From the sequence record OQ689735.1: a DNA stretch of 64,000 nucleotides; one strand, 5' to 3'. The stretch is from Escherichia phage 4E10. Both the position numbers and the translations under genes were made by a program. Position 1 is the first letter of the stretch. Every line of letters starts with the position of its first letter. Below are positions 53,695 to 58,463 of this stretch, in pieces. Under the pieces are notes generated by a model, which saw only the letters and a program-made list of their open reading frames with translations, did not search any database and was not told the DNA's origin.

Positions 53695-53698
53695 CAAT

Positions 53699-53728
53699 GG
53701 GGACCGAAAGGTCCCCATATTTTTATTT
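53699..53728 (+). terminator. terminator after gene 54
   Basis: GGGGACC-GAAA-GGUCCCC hairpin followed by AUAUUUUUAUUU. Confidence 0.55.
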
Positions 53729-54013
53729 ACGGAATGAAATAAAAGCAGCAACTGAAGCAACTAAACTGTCTTCAATATAAACTTCAATTTTTACCGGAGC
53801 TTCTGACTCAAATTTACCTGTTACTACACCTTGGAAAATGCTTTCAGTCTGTTCTGGCTTTGAAAAATTTTCAGAAGGAAAAATTCCAAACTTTTTATCT
53901 GTTCCAAAAATTTTGATAAATTCATCATAAACTGCTTCATTAAAAGCGTTATCAGCAGGAATAACGCCTTCAACTACAAGTTCTTGACCTAAAAAGCGTA
54001 AAGAAGATTTCAT
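53723..54013 (-). CDS. hypothetical protein
   Basis: 96-aa ORF preceded by an early-type promoter at 54040-54076. Confidence 0.55.
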   Translation of the reverse strand: MKSSLRFLGQELVVEGVIPADNAFNEAVYDEFIKIFGTDKKFGIFPSENFSKPEQTESIFQGVVTGKFESEAPVKIEVYIEDSLVASVAAFISFRK

Positions 54014-54039: not shown

Positions 54040-54076
54040 AGATTATTATAACACAACACGAGGGACTTGTAAACTA
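54040..54076 (-). promoter_or_regulatory. T4 early-type promoter
   Basis: minus strand GTTTAC, 18 bp, TATAAT, upstream of the 96-aa ORF. Confidence 0.45.
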
Positions 54077-56131
54077 CATCTTGAACTTTTTAGACATTCC
54101 GTTGATGTTAACCAAAGAAGCCAAGATTTGAGAAACTTCGTTTTCCTCTTCTTTTGATTCTTCTACAAGGAATTGATTAAACCCAGCCATTGGACGAACT
54201 TCGCCAGTTTCCATTAGATGATCGCCATCATATACCGATTCTTCTAATTGTTCAGAAGGAGGAACGATTGTGCCTTCGATTAGATACTTGTTATAAGCAG
54301 TTTCTTTCATCATGTACGTGCTTACTTTATTAATCTTCAACAAAATTCCACGCGGTAGAATAACTTCAGCTTCTGATGGAAATCCCGATAAATGACCTGG
54401 AACGATAACTTTGATTCGCTCAGCCCCTTTAATTACCATACCTACGCTAGTTTCAGCATCTTCATTCGCATAAGCAGAATGACTACCCATATGCATCAAA
54501 TCTTCTGCATCAACAGAACCTTCTCCTTCGCCAGAAAATACTGCACCGGAATCATCTAGAGCCATATAGTTTTTACCATGCTCACCGAAGATATTTGGTT
54601 TAAGCGATGTGGATACGAAGTTCTTGAAATAGAACATTTTGTTTTCAATGTTATGACGCAAAGTTTTAAAGGTAACTTCTTGTCCACGATAAAGCGTAGT
54701 TCCTGGAGGAAGAACTGATCCTTTGGCGAATGCAGAATCCAGAGTCTCGATGTGCTTAATAGCTCTTTCCATGTATTCTTCACGGGTAGAATCTGGTTTA
54801 CCCAAAAGGAACGAGTTCATTTCAACATATGAATCTGCACAATAATCTTCAATTACATCAGATTCAGCCTGAGTCAGTCCTTTTGGAGTTACTTCGGTGC
54901 TTGCGTATTCATATGCCTGAGCAGCAGATTCATTAATCAATTTATAAATGCCATTCATGACAAATTGAATAATAGCTACCTTTTCGTCTGGTGTGGCTTT
55001 AGAACCTTTAACTAAATCATTGATAATTTTCTTAATAACATCAAAGCTATTAGAAATATTAATGTCAGCTAGATCGCTCAAAATTTTATCGGTTTTATAA
55101 TCAAAAAATTCTTTATTCTTTAAATATTCTTGAGAACCTTGATGTGTTATATCGCTCTGCAGTCTGATAGACGGATCACGTAAACGTGCATGGGCCAATG
55201 CAATATGATTTCGGAAGCTTTCTAGTTCATAATCGTTAGATTTAAAACGAGAAGCACTTCTCATACCACCGATAGCTCCTTTGCCGAAGTTTGAACCAAT
55301 CTGAATAACGCCAGAGTTCATTGGTCCTTCTGCTTTATATACCGGAACTTTAGATTCAAACTCTTGATATTTCTTAGCGGCGAAGCTATCACCCTGTAGC
55401 GAAGCATCGACAGTAGAATATTGAGCTTGTGCTGCTAATCGACGACTAATTTTAGTTTTCTGAATAACAGCTTGATCCGTGCGCTTATCATTTTCTAAAG
55501 CAATAGAAGCAGCAACAGCAACAGCTTTAGGAACAGCATTACCTGTTTTAACGTCTACATAAACATCACCAACCTTTGATTCAACTTTTGTGAATAACTC
55601 AGTTGAAATAGGAGGTACACCTGGAATGTCTTCTAAATTGGCATTTTTACGGTAAACCATAATATATGCATACTTTTTATCATAGTCCCAGATTTCCTTT
55701 AAAAGAACATATCGACCTGCTCCTTTAGTACGTACTAAACGGTCAGCAATAACTTGCATTTGACGAGCTGCGCCATTTGTTTTACTTTTTAGTACGCGGA
55801 ATAAGCATGCGTCGATTTTATACTGCTTCATTGTTTGAAGAGCAGTATCAAAAACCGCATTAATGACGCCAATTGGATTTCCACCCAAGTTTCTAAGTTT
55901 AACCAGCGATAATTTCTCGTTGACACCTATCATTACGATATGCATCATTTTATCGCCTGGCTTAACGTTTTTATTTGTATCACCACCAGAGGTGTATGTA
56001 CAAAATCTAAATCCAGGAAGCACACTTTCTTCGCCGGCTTGAATAGCAAAAATTTGTGGTATTTTATGCTTAGGATTTAAGTTAACAACCGGCGCCGAAG
56101 CGCCGTCAAATAATTCTGTAATAAGTTCCAT
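54074..56131 (-). CDS. alt: Alt-like ADP-ribosyltransferase, downstream paralog
   Basis: 685 aa; C-terminal ART R-S-E triad (YRGQ, FVSTSL, EAEVILPRG); N-terminus MELITELFD shared with its neighbour. Confidence 0.85.
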   Translation of the reverse strand: MELITELFDGASAPVVNLNPKHKIPQIFAIQAGEESVLPGFRFCTYTSGGDTNKNVKPGDKMMHIVMIGVNEKLSLVKLRNLGGNPIGVINAVFDTALQTMKQYKIDACLFRVLKSKTNGAARQMQVIADRLVRTKGAGRYVLLKEIWDYDKKYAYIMVYRKNANLEDIPGVPPISTELFTKVESKVGDVYVDVKTGNAVPKAVAVAASIALENDKRTDQAVIQKTKISRRLAAQAQYSTVDASLQGDSFAAKKYQEFESKVPVYKAEGPMNSGVIQIGSNFGKGAIGGMRSASRFKSNDYELESFRNHIALAHARLRDPSIRLQSDITHQGSQEYLKNKEFFDYKTDKILSDLADINISNSFDVIKKIINDLVKGSKATPDEKVAIIQFVMNGIYKLINESAAQAYEYASTEVTPKGLTQAESDVIEDYCADSYVEMNSFLLGKPDSTREEYMERAIKHIETLDSAFAKGSVLPPGTTLYRGQEVTFKTLRHNIENKMFYFKNFVSTSLKPNIFGEHGKNYMALDDSGAVFSGEGEGSVDAEDLMHMGSHSAYANEDAETSVGMVIKGAERIKVIVPGHLSGFPSEAEVILPRGILLKINKVSTYMMKETAYNKYLIEGTIVPPSEQLEESVYDGDHLMETGEVRPMAGFNQFLVEESKEEENEVSQILASLVNINGMSKKFKM

Positions 56132-56134
56132 GAT

Positions 56135-58222
56135 TTATCCTTGAACGAACTTGTAAGGCATGTTTGTAATATCTATGCAAGACGCAATAATTCCAAGAGA
56201 TGATTCGACTTTCTGTTTAACATTTGATGAAACAAATGACGCAAAATCAACTCTGTCTTCTATATCACCTGTCATTGTAACCAATTCACCAGTTTCCATT
56301 AAATGGTCTCCGTCATAGATTACCGATTCGGTGAGTTCTTCTGTGGTCATAACTTCAGCTTGAATGAGTTTTGTATTATTAGATGTTGTTCCGTCATTAT
56401 TAGAAGCATCAGTTATTTTATTAACTTTGACCATCAATCCACGCGGTAGAATAACTTCAGCTTCTGTTGCTATTCCGAGACTTCCTGGATATACAACATT
56501 AACTTTATGAGCTCCATCAATTGCCCATCCTATTTGAACTTTAACGTATTCAGGATTTTCTTTATACGCTCTTATTTCGTTTGGATTAATAGTTATTCCT
56601 TCTTCATTTTTATCAACTGTTAATTCATTACGAGCTTCTGGTTCTAAAAGACCAATACCAGCATGTGTGATTCCAAAACGTCCAAAAATGATAGGAGTTA
56701 AAGAAGTAGATACAAAATTTCTGAAGTAGAACACTTTATTTTTAACTAACGCTTCATATATAGGAGCAGTCATACTTTGAGCACGATAAACTGTAATGCC
56801 TTCTGGTATACGGTCACCATTTTCAAAAGCTGAATCTAAGTTATTTATAGCAGATTCAATTTCTTTTTCACTCATTACATCATATCGTTCTGGATTGTAG
56901 CGGCCTAAAAGAAGATTATTGATGTCAGTATATCCTGAACCGCAATATTCTCTAATGCCACGCTTTTGCGATGGAGTATATTTAGAACCATCACGGGCAA
57001 TAGTAATATCAATCATTGGACCTGCACCAATTCCGGAAAAGCTATAAATCATTCGTTTGAGGAATTTAGTTTTTGCTGCGTTCCAAGAATTTTTAGTTAT
57101 TTCTTCCCAGACTTCATCTGGCTGCCCTTTACGAGTTTTATTATGTTTATCAAGCCAATTATCTTTATATTCTTCAAAGAATTGATTAACAGCTGCTGCG
57201 TATTTCTCTAAACATTTTATTGAAGTAGTTGGTTCATTTTTAATCGCATTAAGAATTACATCTTTAATTTTTTCAGAAACTTCATTAACCTCACTTTTTG
57301 AAAAGAATTTATAGTCATAGTGAAGTTCATCTGCGGTTCCTTCGGCAATGATTTTTGCTGCCTTAGTTTTAGAAGCTAATGAATTAATTCCAAGCTTCAT
57401 TTCTTCTGCTTCGGGAATTAAAGGAGCGGTAGCAGGTTTATTGAAATTAGCTGCGGTAGATTCATACTTCTGGAATAATTCACTTTCAAATCTAGAAGAT
57501 TCCAACGACTGACTTTGCGCAATTGCTCTACGTGAAATTTTAACTTTAACGATTACCGCTTGGTCAGAACGTTTATCATTTTCTTGCGCAATAGATGCTG
57601 CAATTGCCTCATTTTTAGTTACTTGGGCTCCAGTATCTTTATTGATATAAACATCACCGACCTTCGATTCAACTTTAGTAAAGAGCTCGGTACTAATTTC
57701 CGGAACTCCTGGAATGTCTTCTAGTGATACATTTTTGCGATGTATAAGAATATATGCATACTTTTTATCATAATCCCAGAGTTCCTTGAGAAGGACGTAT
57801 CTGCCACCTGAACGACTACGGATAAGTCTATCAGCAATAACTTGAATTTGTCGAGCTTGTCCAGCAGTTTTAGACTTAAGAATACGAAGCATACAAGCAT
57901 CAATTTTATATTGACGCATTGTTTGCATTGCAACAGTAAAAACTGAATTGATATAATTAATTGGGCTTGGACCAAGACCTTTTAATTTAGCAATTGAACC
58001 TTTAGCAGTTAATGTAAAAGGAACAATGTGCATCATTTTGTCGCCCATTTTTAAATCGCGATTAGTATCACCTCCAGATGTATATGTACATAAACGAAAG
58101 CCTGGTTGTTCAATTGCATCATCAACATGAACTGAAAAAATTTGTGGTATTTTCTTCTTTGGATTTAAGTTTGTAATCGGAAGAGTAGTATCTTCGTCAA
58201 ATAATTCTGTAATAAGTTCCAT
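56135..58222 (-). CDS. alt: Alt-like ADP-ribosyltransferase, upstream paralog
   Basis: 695 aa from the second Met (MELITELFD); ART triad (YRAQ, FVSTSL, EAEVILPRG); TATAAATA late promoter about 25 bp upstream; stop 3 nt before the next alt start. Confidence 0.85.
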   Translation of the reverse strand: MELITELFDEDTTLPITNLNPKKKIPQIFSVHVDDAIEQPGFRLCTYTSGGDTNRDLKMGDKMMHIVPFTLTAKGSIAKLKGLGPSPINYINSVFTVAMQTMRQYKIDACMLRILKSKTAGQARQIQVIADRLIRSRSGGRYVLLKELWDYDKKYAYILIHRKNVSLEDIPGVPEISTELFTKVESKVGDVYINKDTGAQVTKNEAIAASIAQENDKRSDQAVIVKVKISRRAIAQSQSLESSRFESELFQKYESTAANFNKPATAPLIPEAEEMKLGINSLASKTKAAKIIAEGTADELHYDYKFFSKSEVNEVSEKIKDVILNAIKNEPTTSIKCLEKYAAAVNQFFEEYKDNWLDKHNKTRKGQPDEVWEEITKNSWNAAKTKFLKRMIYSFSGIGAGPMIDITIARDGSKYTPSQKRGIREYCGSGYTDINNLLLGRYNPERYDVMSEKEIESAINNLDSAFENGDRIPEGITVYRAQSMTAPIYEALVKNKVFYFRNFVSTSLTPIIFGRFGITHAGIGLLEPEARNELTVDKNEEGITINPNEIRAYKENPEYVKVQIGWAIDGAHKVNVVYPGSLGIATEAEVILPRGLMVKVNKITDASNNDGTTSNNTKLIQAEVMTTEELTESVIYDGDHLMETGELVTMTGDIEDRVDFASFVSSNVKQKVESSLGIIASCIDITNMPYKFVQG

Positions 58223-58245
58223 CATAGCCTCTCTAGTGTTTATTC

Positions 58246-58253
58246 TATTTATA
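58246..58253 (-). promoter_or_regulatory. late promoter for the upstream alt paralog
   Basis: TATAAATA on the minus strand about 21 bp upstream of ATG 58222/58225. Confidence 0.55.
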
Positions 58254-58258
58254 AAATT

Positions 58259-58276
58259 AAAGGCCCGAAGGCCTTT
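58259..58276 (-). terminator. hairpin overlapping the stop of the 62-aa ORF, upstream of the alt late promoter
   Basis: AAAGGCC-CGAA-GGCCUUU followed on the minus strand by AAUUUUAU. Confidence 0.4.
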
Positions 58277-58463
58277 AGTAATCTAGTGGTAAGAGAGTAC
58301 GATATATTTCAAACTTTGGTCCTTTTTCATAGGCATCAAATGTTTCTGTAAATTTATTGTAAGCATATGCATCTACAAATTCGAGAATGACTTGTGATAC
58401 AGAAGTAGAAACATCTCCACCTTCTTTTTGAGCAATGACAATTGTTTCTAAGTAAGCTTTCAT
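58275..58463 (-). CDS. hypothetical small protein
   Basis: 62-aa ORF overlapping the ligase stop. Confidence 0.5.
   Translation of the reverse strand: MKAYLETIVIAQKEGGDVSTSVSQVILEFVDAYAYNKFTETFDAYEKGPKFEIYRTLLPLDY

Follow-up and report, generated by a model that had tools for sequence, protein, structure and literature searches.

Two adjacent, strongly diverged alt-type ADP-ribosyltransferase genes in Escherichia phage 4E10 and related phages

The window analyzed here is a stretch of 64,000 nucleotides from Escherichia phage 4E10 (OQ689735.1), which belongs to Tequatrovirus. Between gene 30/alt.1 and alt.-3/gene 54, it encodes two genes that we denote UP (upstream alt gene) and DN (downstream alt paralogue). 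The locus is composed of the following features:

58258 to 58277, minus strand: terminator-like hairpin (AAAGGCC-TTCG-GGCCTTT plus T-run), ending the alt.1/gene 30 transcript just ahead of the alt late promoter
58246 to 58253, minus strand: late promoter box of the T4 type, TATAAATA; the first ATG of UP follows 21 nt downstream
56135 to 58225, minus strand: UP, 696 aa (first ATG) or 695 aa (second ATG, 58222); position of T4 alt
56842 to 56849, minus strand: second perfect TATAAATA, within UP (codons 458-460, A-I-N-N), 711 nt before the start of DN
56132 to 56142, minus strand: UP/DN junction with an AAGGA Shine-Dalgarno sequence (56142-56138) in the 3' end of UP, the UP stop codon TAA (56137-56135) and the spacer atc
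54074 to 56131, minus strand: DN, 685 aa; intact counterpart of the T4 fragments alt.-1/alt.-2

The preliminary description had reported two adjacent minus-strand genes of 685 and 695 aa, 3 nt apart, which share the start MELITELFD and differ through much of the remainder. Both open reading frames were confirmed, with UP reaching 696 aa if the first ATG is counted. The start MELITELFD of UP belongs to the second ATG (58222); T4 alt has the same ATGATG, and both residue numberings are in use in the literature. The MELITE propeptide is also present in DN. The intergenic gap is indeed 3 nt (TAA-atc-ATG), no terminator was seen at the junction, and this layout suggests co-transcription and possibly coupled translation. 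UP and DN share 41% identity (BLASTP, E = 6e-163), far above chance; identity falls to about 15% in the helical middle region, to 36% in the ADP-ribosyltransferase (ART) domain, and to almost nothing in the stretch inserted between STS and ExE. Rather than one gene split by a frameshift, they are separate, positionally conserved paralogues.

A single late promoter had also been proposed. The box at 58253-58246 does head the pair, and it coincides with the feature end given in that description (58253); the terminator upstream of alt is conserved (PMC1524935). The promoter is not the only candidate, since the same strand carries a further perfect TATAAATA inside UP. This internal copy is allele-specific: it is present in ime09, which carries the same UP allele, and was absent from T4, JS10 and contig L003 in a sequence comparison, and hence it may be a coding coincidence rather than an extra late promoter for DN. 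Expression of DN would proceed via read-through from UP or via the internal box.

The domains and motifs of the two proteins map as follows (a slash denotes the cleavage point):

55412 to 56131, minus strand: DN N-terminal domain, aa 1-240, including the MELITE/L propeptide (gp21 motif ITE-6)
54902 to 55411, minus strand: DN helical middle region, aa 241-410
54239 to 54901, minus strand: DN ART domain, aa 411-631, ending at the predicted gp21 site L-E-E631/S
54688-54686, minus strand: DN R482, catalytic Arg
54613-54605, minus strand: DN S507/S509, STS motif
54373-54365, minus strand: DN E587/E589, ExE motif
54077 to 54238, minus strand: DN predicted acidic C-terminal propeptide, 54 residues, aa 632-685
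56327 to 56785, minus strand: UP catalytic core and processing site (R480, STS, ExE, gp21 site)
56785-56783, minus strand: UP R480, catalytic Arg
56464-56456, minus strand: UP E587/E589, ExE motif
56329-56327, minus strand: UP gp21 site L-T-E632/S, a sequence motif

That both proteins are Alt-like ADP-ribosyltransferases, as had been proposed, is confirmed at the sequence level; they belong to the R-S-E clade of mono-ADP-ribosyltransferases and to the T4 Alt family. Pfam PF03496 (ADPrib_exo_Tox) scores 72.7 bits for DN and 129 bits for UP at a curated cut-off of 23.4 bits, and PHROG 802 (Alt) covers both in full length (DN residues 1-685, E = 1.9e-255; UP residues 1-695, E = 9.2e-274). The catalytic triad, claimed earlier for both genes, is intact in both: LYR482GQ, S507-T508-S509 and E587-A-E589 in DN, and VYR480AQ, S505-T506-S507 and E587-A-E589 in UP; these five residues (R, S, S, E, E) do not vary across an alignment of 19 homologues. 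In a profile alignment with solved ARTs of the C3 and iota types, the Alt ExE pairs with QYE (C3cer) and EYE (BECa), and the arginine of the NAD-binding aromatic-Arg motif (Y481-R482 in DN, Y479-R480 in UP) with YR(G) of C3cer 4xsg and BECa 5gtt. For DN, the ART fold was confirmed as well. ExE on the ARTT loop marks the arginine-specific type, and we infer arginine specificity for UP and DN. The second Glu of ExE corresponds to E577 of T4 Alt, whose E577A variant is inactive (PMC11404850).

Among the toxins of the R-S-E clade (PF03496), the C3 exoenzymes, Vis, VIP2, iota/CDTa and Certhrax share 14-26% sequence identity with the Alt proteins. The latter differ by an insert of about 50 residues between STS and ExE, by a phage-specific N-domain, and by protease-removed propeptides where the toxins have a secretion signal or binding component. 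An identity with ModA or ModB was rejected on the grounds of size and expression class: these T4 enzymes are single-domain proteins of about 200 aa, early-expressed and not packaged, while UP and DN comprise about 690 aa with the Alt N-domain and a late promoter.

The closest known system is T4 Alt (gpAlt, NP_049811), a head-packaged, injected NAD+:arginine mono-ADP-ribosyltransferase of which about 40 copies reside in the virion head and are ejected into the host. Its classical target is Arg265 of RNA polymerase alpha, besides other host proteins, and these targets are known only for T4 Alt. The locus, the late promoter and the upstream hairpin are common to T4 and the window, and UP and DN show the same four-part architecture, with R/STS/ExE and both gp21 sites retained. 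Differences lie in the central cassette of UP and in DN, which overall shares 41% identity and lacks a functional counterpart in T4. The N-domain is 99-100% (UP, aa 1-240) and 67-68% (DN) identical to that of T4 Alt. Its assignment to PF26846 (Tevenvirinae_ADPRT) is taken from near-identical proteins: precomputed annotation places this family on protein P0001, which is 99% identical, and on the two genes at each of the loci L003 and L004. A predicted model of the DN N-domain folds as an alpha/beta sandwich, for which no confident relative was found in the PDB. The helical middle region of DN, which shares 44-58% identity with the downstream genes in JS10 and contig L003, is a candidate substrate-recognition module.

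T4 Alt is cleaved at ITE-6 and LTE-619, the latter removing a C-terminal propeptide of 63 residues (PMC5694885); the mass calculated for its mature form, 68.2 kDa, equals the published value. Corresponding gp21 motifs are found at both ends of UP (ITE-6 and LTE-632) and DN (ITE-6 and LEE-631), and all seven Alt proteins compared retain the (L/I)xE/SV..YDGD site. Predicted mature forms are residues 7-632 (70.1 kDa) for UP and 7-631 (69.1 kDa) for DN. The DN model is disordered at the C-terminus, with pLDDT below 50 from residue 629, and this onset together with the LEE-631 motif supports C-terminal processing. Since both motifs are kept, DN is probably packaged in the head and injected like T4 Alt. 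A literature search for proteomic or biochemical work on DN, including virion proteomics, found none.

The tandem pair is already known and represents the usual arrangement in the genus. As a genomic observation it is routine: it is annotated in hundreds of records, T2 and T6 included, and was remarked on in print for phages 6phi13 (PMC13600099, 2026) and 44RR (PMC1524935, 2006). Second alt genes appear in T6 (alt.-2, AXN58232), T2 (EcT2_00208), ime09 (alt.-2), RB3, Kha5h and others, where DN is labelled 'alt.-2' or 'Alt-like RNA polymerase ADP-ribosyltransferase'. The pairs of these relatives, with genes of 2,094 or 2,091 nt and 2,058 nt, a 3-nt gap and 97-98% nucleotide identity to the window, differ in nothing substantive. 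The T6 record enters the gene as an 'apparent insertion in alt.-2' and thereby takes the event in the wrong direction. New in this study are the selection estimates, the gp21 motifs in both genes, the JS10 pair with the age of the duplication, and the modular grouping of the domains.

Both genes are under strong purifying selection with dN/dS of about 0.01; between the window and ime09 it is 0.007 for DN and 0.011 for UP (dS 0.09-0.17). In 358 phage records the effector region of DN is conserved at 95% identity or more. The central cassette of UP departs from T4 Alt in the middle (32% identity) and ART (65% identity) parts, with a C-tail 99-100% identical. This cassette is the more frequent allele, with 316 records matching it at 95% identity or more, versus 174 for the T4 type. 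The UP ART domain is 94% identical to that of the upstream Alt of Dhakavirus JS10. The tandem pair with the same 3-nt gap is found in JS10 and in a divergent metagenome contig, which argues that the duplication is old and that the single gene of T4 reflects a loss. For middle, ART and tail, the window and JS10 share 44/57/61% in DN and 67/94/53% in UP. Overall, N-domains cluster by genome, and effectors (helical region plus ART) by slot.

The T4 fragments alt.-1/alt.-2 (NP_049810, NP_049809) are annotated as 'an old duplication of the first part of gene alt'. The first 348 nt of DN match them at 94.7% nucleotide identity, and beyond the junction the T4 sequence corresponds to the final 20 nt of DN and to alt.-3. 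The T4 counterpart is disrupted twice: the frame shifts near codon 55, and 1,699 bp are deleted between 9-bp direct repeats, located in the window at

55784 to 55792, minus strand: left repeat copy CTAAAAAGT, 9 bp, end point of the deletion creating T4 alt.-2
54085 to 54093, minus strand: right repeat copy CTAAAAAGT, 9 bp, the other end point

Given the relatives with an intact gene, the sequence comparison identifies alt.-1/alt.-2 as the deletion remnant of a full-length gene, not as a partial duplication. The deletion junction occurs in 91 of 498 records (T4 and 90 others), natural isolates included, while the UP effector is lost in apparent hybrid alleles. Thus, neither gene is indispensable, and an overlap of function is possible.

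Taken as a whole, we assign a probability of roughly three in four to the following reading: the locus holds two functional paralogous alt genes, co-transcribed late from the TATAAATA at 58253, whose products are packaged and injected, with DN acting on different or partly overlapping targets. UP, in the slot of T4 alt, and DN would be transcribed together late in infection. Each product would consist of the short N-terminal propeptide MELITE/L, the conserved Tevenvirinae Alt N-domain of about 235 aa that presumably directs the protein to the prohead core and anchors it there, a variable effector made up of the helical region and a C3/VIP2/Vis-type R-S-ExE mono-ADP-ribosyltransferase domain, and an acidic disordered C-terminal propeptide. 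Packaging, processing and injection are argued by analogy to T4 Alt: both proteins would be incorporated into the core of the prohead, lose their two ends to the gp21 protease and leave the head together with the DNA. Arginines of host proteins would then be ADP-ribosylated at the expense of NAD+. Considering the unrelated helical region and strongly diverged ART surface of DN, the host proteins that it modifies most likely differ from those of UP or overlap with them only in part. The preliminary suggestion of different target specificities is therefore plausible, and a 2026 paper (PMC13600099) likewise inferred diverged targets. Divergent recognition surfaces are as such no proof of different targets.

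A special case of this reading, unlikely but to be taken seriously, is that injected DN inactivates a host immunity or toxin protein by ADP-ribosylation, its presence or absence tracking the defence repertoire of the hosts. The presence/absence polymorphism of DN with clean deletions and the apparent exchange of effector cassettes on a constant N-domain are consistent with such a role, as are the adjoining gene alt.-3, site of CmdTAC escape mutations in T4 (PMC11618068), and the head-internal IPI, a known injected anti-restriction factor. However, the extreme conservation of DN within its class is unusual for an arms-race protein. We consider it improbable that DN is merely a second copy raising the same activity per virion on RNA polymerase alpha Arg265 and the usual Alt targets. 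Architecture, the arginine-type ExE motif and processing motifs are alike in both genes, and either slot can be lost in nature, but the low identities of the helical region, ART domain and STS-ExE insert speak against mere dosage; likewise, each class is nearly invariant and the classes are kept apart across genera, which fits two conserved jobs better. More doubtful still is a DN that is not virion-delivered and acts late in the producing cell, or on a non-protein acceptor such as RNA, DNA or NAD-capped RNA. ModB of T4, which reportedly performs an unexpected chemistry (RNAylation with NAD-capped RNA), sets a precedent for the latter, yet DN keeps the exact MELITE/L propeptide, the Alt N-domain and the C-terminal gp21 site, all tied to head incorporation and processing in T4 Alt, and would be expressed with UP from a late promoter. 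Finally, a decaying duplicate on the way to a pseudogene, as suggested by the remnants in T4 and the 90 other records, is effectively refuted by the intact frame of 685 codons with all catalytic residues, the dN/dS of 0.007, the conservation in 358 records and the orthologues in the same slot of another genus.

Hybrid single-gene alleles and the sharing of cassettes across genera point to cassette exchange. We tentatively propose, at somewhat less than even odds, that the alt locus is a two-slot, cassette-exchanging system of injected effectors: a genus-specific N-domain that targets the head and the two propeptides cut off by the protease would stay constant, effectors would be swapped between phages and slots, and DN would have targets beyond the classical ones of Alt, possibly defence or translation proteins. 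It resembles the polymorphic-toxin-like, MuF-fused head-packaged effectors (Iyer et al. 2017, 2022), in which a constant delivery module is combined with variable enzymatic effectors co-ejected with the DNA. In contrast to these, Alt has no MuF domain and is delivered via the T4 prohead core and gp21 processing, and Alt is expressly left out of the polyvalent proteins.

Phage ARTs are of high current interest, owing to RNAylation by ModB and to ART-based defence and counter-defence. Almost all knowledge about injected phage ADP-ribosyltransferases comes from T4, which has one working alt gene, while most of its relatives, including T2 and T6, appear to deliver a second enzyme that is strongly diverged and strongly conserved. 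DN is thus a cheap and well-defined candidate for target discovery, with T2 and T6 as ready-made experimental systems. If the two-slot reading is true, the activity of DN would have escaped notice for fifty years owing to the 1.7-kb deletion of the gene in T4, the model phage.

The window is part of a Tequatrovirus (T4-like) genome; a 5-kb region shares 97-98% identity with numerous phages of Escherichia and Shigella, and the last 24 kb give a similar picture. UP and DN denote the upstream alt gene, at the position of T4 alt, and its downstream paralogue, respectively, as well as their proteins.

56135..58225, minus strand: UP, ORF of 696 aa from the first ATG or 695 aa from the second ATG (58222)
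54074..56131, minus strand: DN, ORF of 685 aa
54073-54045, minus strand: predicted strong sigma-70/T4-early-type promoter of alt.-3 (TTTACA-17-TATAAT with TG), in the 60-nt gap after DN
53723..54013, minus strand: alt.-3, 96 aa, Pfam DUF5498

The preliminary description of two adjacent minus-strand genes of 685 and 695 aa, separated by 3 nt, is confirmed by these ORFs and by the junction, which reads ...GGA TAA atc ATG GAA..., with an AGGA Shine-Dalgarno motif for DN lying within the 3' end of UP; the interpretation given there is essentially right. As also proposed, the proteins are related yet diverged (41% identity, E = 6e-163 in pairwise BLASTP). UP is preceded, in this order, by a hairpin (58277-58258), the T4-type late promoter box TATAAATA (58253-58246), GAGAGG, and an ATGATG start that is also found in T4 alt. 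Both numberings of T4 Alt occur in the literature, with ITE-6 and LTE-619 counted from MELITE (PMC5694885) and E577 from MMELITE (PMC11404850). Further upstream, alt.1 (58275..58463, minus strand, 62 aa) has a match to Pfam PF24647 'Phage blade protein' (E = 2e-29), and it shares 4 nt with the end of DNA ligase gene 30.

The notion of a single late promoter heading the pair holds for the box before UP, but a second perfect TATAAATA lies inside UP (56849-56842, minus strand), 711 nt before the DN start. This internal box is present in the relative ime09, which carries the same UP allele, and absent from T4, from the Dhakavirus phage JS10 and from the divergent metagenome contig L003. It was therefore rejected as a conserved DN promoter, and its role as a promoter appears doubtful. 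No terminator was found between UP and DN, and a strong sigma-70-type early promoter is predicted only after DN, before alt.-3, which suggests that UP and DN form a late two-gene unit. Between the converging gene 54 and alt.-3, a hairpin at 53697-53718 with a perfect 9-bp stem (ATGGGGACC-GAAA-GGTCCCCAT) and T-runs on both strands looks like a bidirectional terminator 3' of alt.-3.

Both proteins score well above the threshold for Pfam ADPrib_exo_Tox, and the Alt-like PHROG 802 covers each of them over its whole length. The catalytic triad noted in each gene is borne out by an alignment of 19 sequences, in which five residues never vary: the Arg of Y-R, the two Ser of S-T-S and the two Glu of E-x-E. 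With the DN sequence alone as query, PDB sequences gave no match at E <= 0.01, and relatives of DN there were reached by profile search only: the profile of the 19-sequence alignment matches the solved structures of C3cer (4xsg, E = 3e-8), BECa/CPILE-a, Certhrax, Vis and CDTa, with the catalytic Arg and (Q/E)xE lining up. No Alt structure is deposited in PDB. Among the toxins of this clade (C3 versus iota/Vis), arginine specificity goes with ExE rather than QxE. The second Glu of ExE in UP and DN corresponds to E577 of T4 Alt, whose E577A mutant loses all ADP-ribosylation (PMC11404850).

Sliding-window identity between UP and DN, combined with a structure model of DN, divides the proteins into four parts.

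aa 1-240: N-domain, UP/DN identity 52-82%
aa about 245-410: helical middle region, UP/DN identity about 15%
aa about 415-625: ART domain, UP/DN identity 25-48%, with almost no identity in the STS-ExE insert
from residue 629: tail, disordered in the model

For the N-domain, proteins nearly identical to these carry a precomputed match to Pfam PF26846 (Tevenvirinae_ADPRT). Our own search of N-domains and middle regions against Pfam at E <= 10 returned sub-threshold noise only (YpM, CesA, YtxC, GHL6). Since the helical region and the ART surface have diverged, the most likely reading (probability about 0.6) is that the target set of DN differs from that of UP. A role in counter-defence would be an attractive special case of such different targets. 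Mere dosage, or partial overlap with the targets of UP, retains some probability. As to the neighboring gene, T4 mutants in which Alt.-3 is extended at its C-terminus evade the defence system CmdTAC (PMC11618068).

The prohead core contains about 40 copies of T4 Alt, which the prohead protease gp21 trims after ITE-6 and after LTE-619 to 68.2 kDa (PMC5694885, PMC9958956); the mass that we computed from these two sites, 68.2 kDa, matches the published value. Predicted gp21 motifs are ITE-6 and LTE-632 in UP (mature mass 70.1 kDa), and ITE-6 and LEE-631 in DN (69.1 kDa). The (L/I)xE|SV..YDGD site is conserved in all seven Alt proteins compared, which represent three phage lineages, and the predicted C-terminal site of DN falls at the onset of model disorder. 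Because the motifs are kept and the site is placed in this way, we infer that DN, like T4 Alt, would be packaged in the head, processed at its two termini and ejected together with the DNA.

In T4, the gene order is gene 30, alt.1, alt, alt.-1, alt.-2, alt.-3, gene 54, and the T4 record states that alt.-1 and alt.-2 resemble a duplication of the alt start. Aligned to the window, T4 follows the first 348 nt of DN at 94.7% and then jumps to its last 20 nt. The jump is flanked by two copies of the 9-bp direct repeat CTAAAAAGT (window 55792-55784 and 54093-54085), which are the exact end points of a 1,699-bp deletion giving T4 alt.-2. What is left of the gene is further interrupted by a frameshift near codon 55, which separates alt.-1 from alt.-2. 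Deletion and frameshift together mark DN as the intact form of a gene lost by T4. Of 498 matching phage records, 91 have the T4-type junction, among them the natural isolates RB55, RB59 and HY03. The alt.-2 remnant of T4 reads through the region of the alt.-3 promoter.

Tandem pairs are also found in JS10 (694 and 707 aa, 3-nt gap) and in the divergent metagenome contig (697 and 694 aa). A domain-by-domain comparison is incongruent: N-domains cluster by genome (identity 68% between UP and DN of the window, 65% within the JS10 pair, 42-46% across genera), effector parts by upstream or downstream slot. For middle, ART and tail, respectively, identities to the JS10 counterparts are 44, 57 and 61% for DN, and 67, 94 and 53% for UP. 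These pairs and the slot-wise grouping of effectors argue that the duplication is older than the split of these genera and that the single gene of T4 reflects a secondary loss. Recent gene conversion between the N-domains of UP and DN was rejected, because their nucleotide identity is about 66-68% and no exact 31-mer is common to both. A decaying duplicate is likewise ruled out for DN: comparison with ime09 yields dN/dS values of 0.007 (DN) and 0.011 (UP) at a dS of 0.09-0.17, so that both genes are under strong purifying selection.

UP and T4 Alt are 99-100% identical in the N-domain and C-tail, whereas the central part (56363..57490, minus strand) is a different allele, with identities of 32% (middle region) and 65% (ART domain); by domain-wise comparison, the N-domain reaches 100%. 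At least two central-cassette alleles circulate in the upstream slot within the genus, the window type in 316 records (at least 95% identity) and the T4 type in 174 (at least 90%). The ART domain of UP shares 94% of its amino acids but only 77% of its nucleotides with that of the upstream JS10 Alt; this argues for an old, strongly constrained class of cassette and against recent transfer from Dhakavirus.

Three database proteins (P0004, P0005, P0007) are hybrids in which a UP-type N-terminus continues as DN; their crossovers lie around residues 108, 190 and 222. The hybrid is the sole alt gene between alt.1 and alt.-3 in its contig, as in the following cases.

L007:4001-6055: hybrid alt, Logan contig SRR24155011_2765
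L008:4001-6061: hybrid alt, Logan contig SRR19633722_48321

The nucleotide switch from UP-like to DN-like is sharp, and the hybrids, each seen in only one or two short-read contigs, resemble products of unequal crossover between UP and DN. Assembly chimeras, a concern especially for single Logan contigs, are unlikely because no 31-mers are shared at the crossover points.

In the phage collection, 358 records match the DN effector region at 95% identity or more. An intact second alt gene is present in T6 (L005, MH550421, 3302-5359) and T2 (L006, AP018813, 3737-5794). Its label in the T6 record, 'apparent insertion in alt.-2', reverses the direction of the event; in T2, as in many other records, it is a 'hypothetical protein'. 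[quoted passage not shown] Thus, the finding of a tandem pair is correct but already known, and such a pair is what Tequatrovirus genomes normally carry and what their annotations already show. Its value lies mainly in the second enzyme, which studies of T4 would have missed because T4 is without it.
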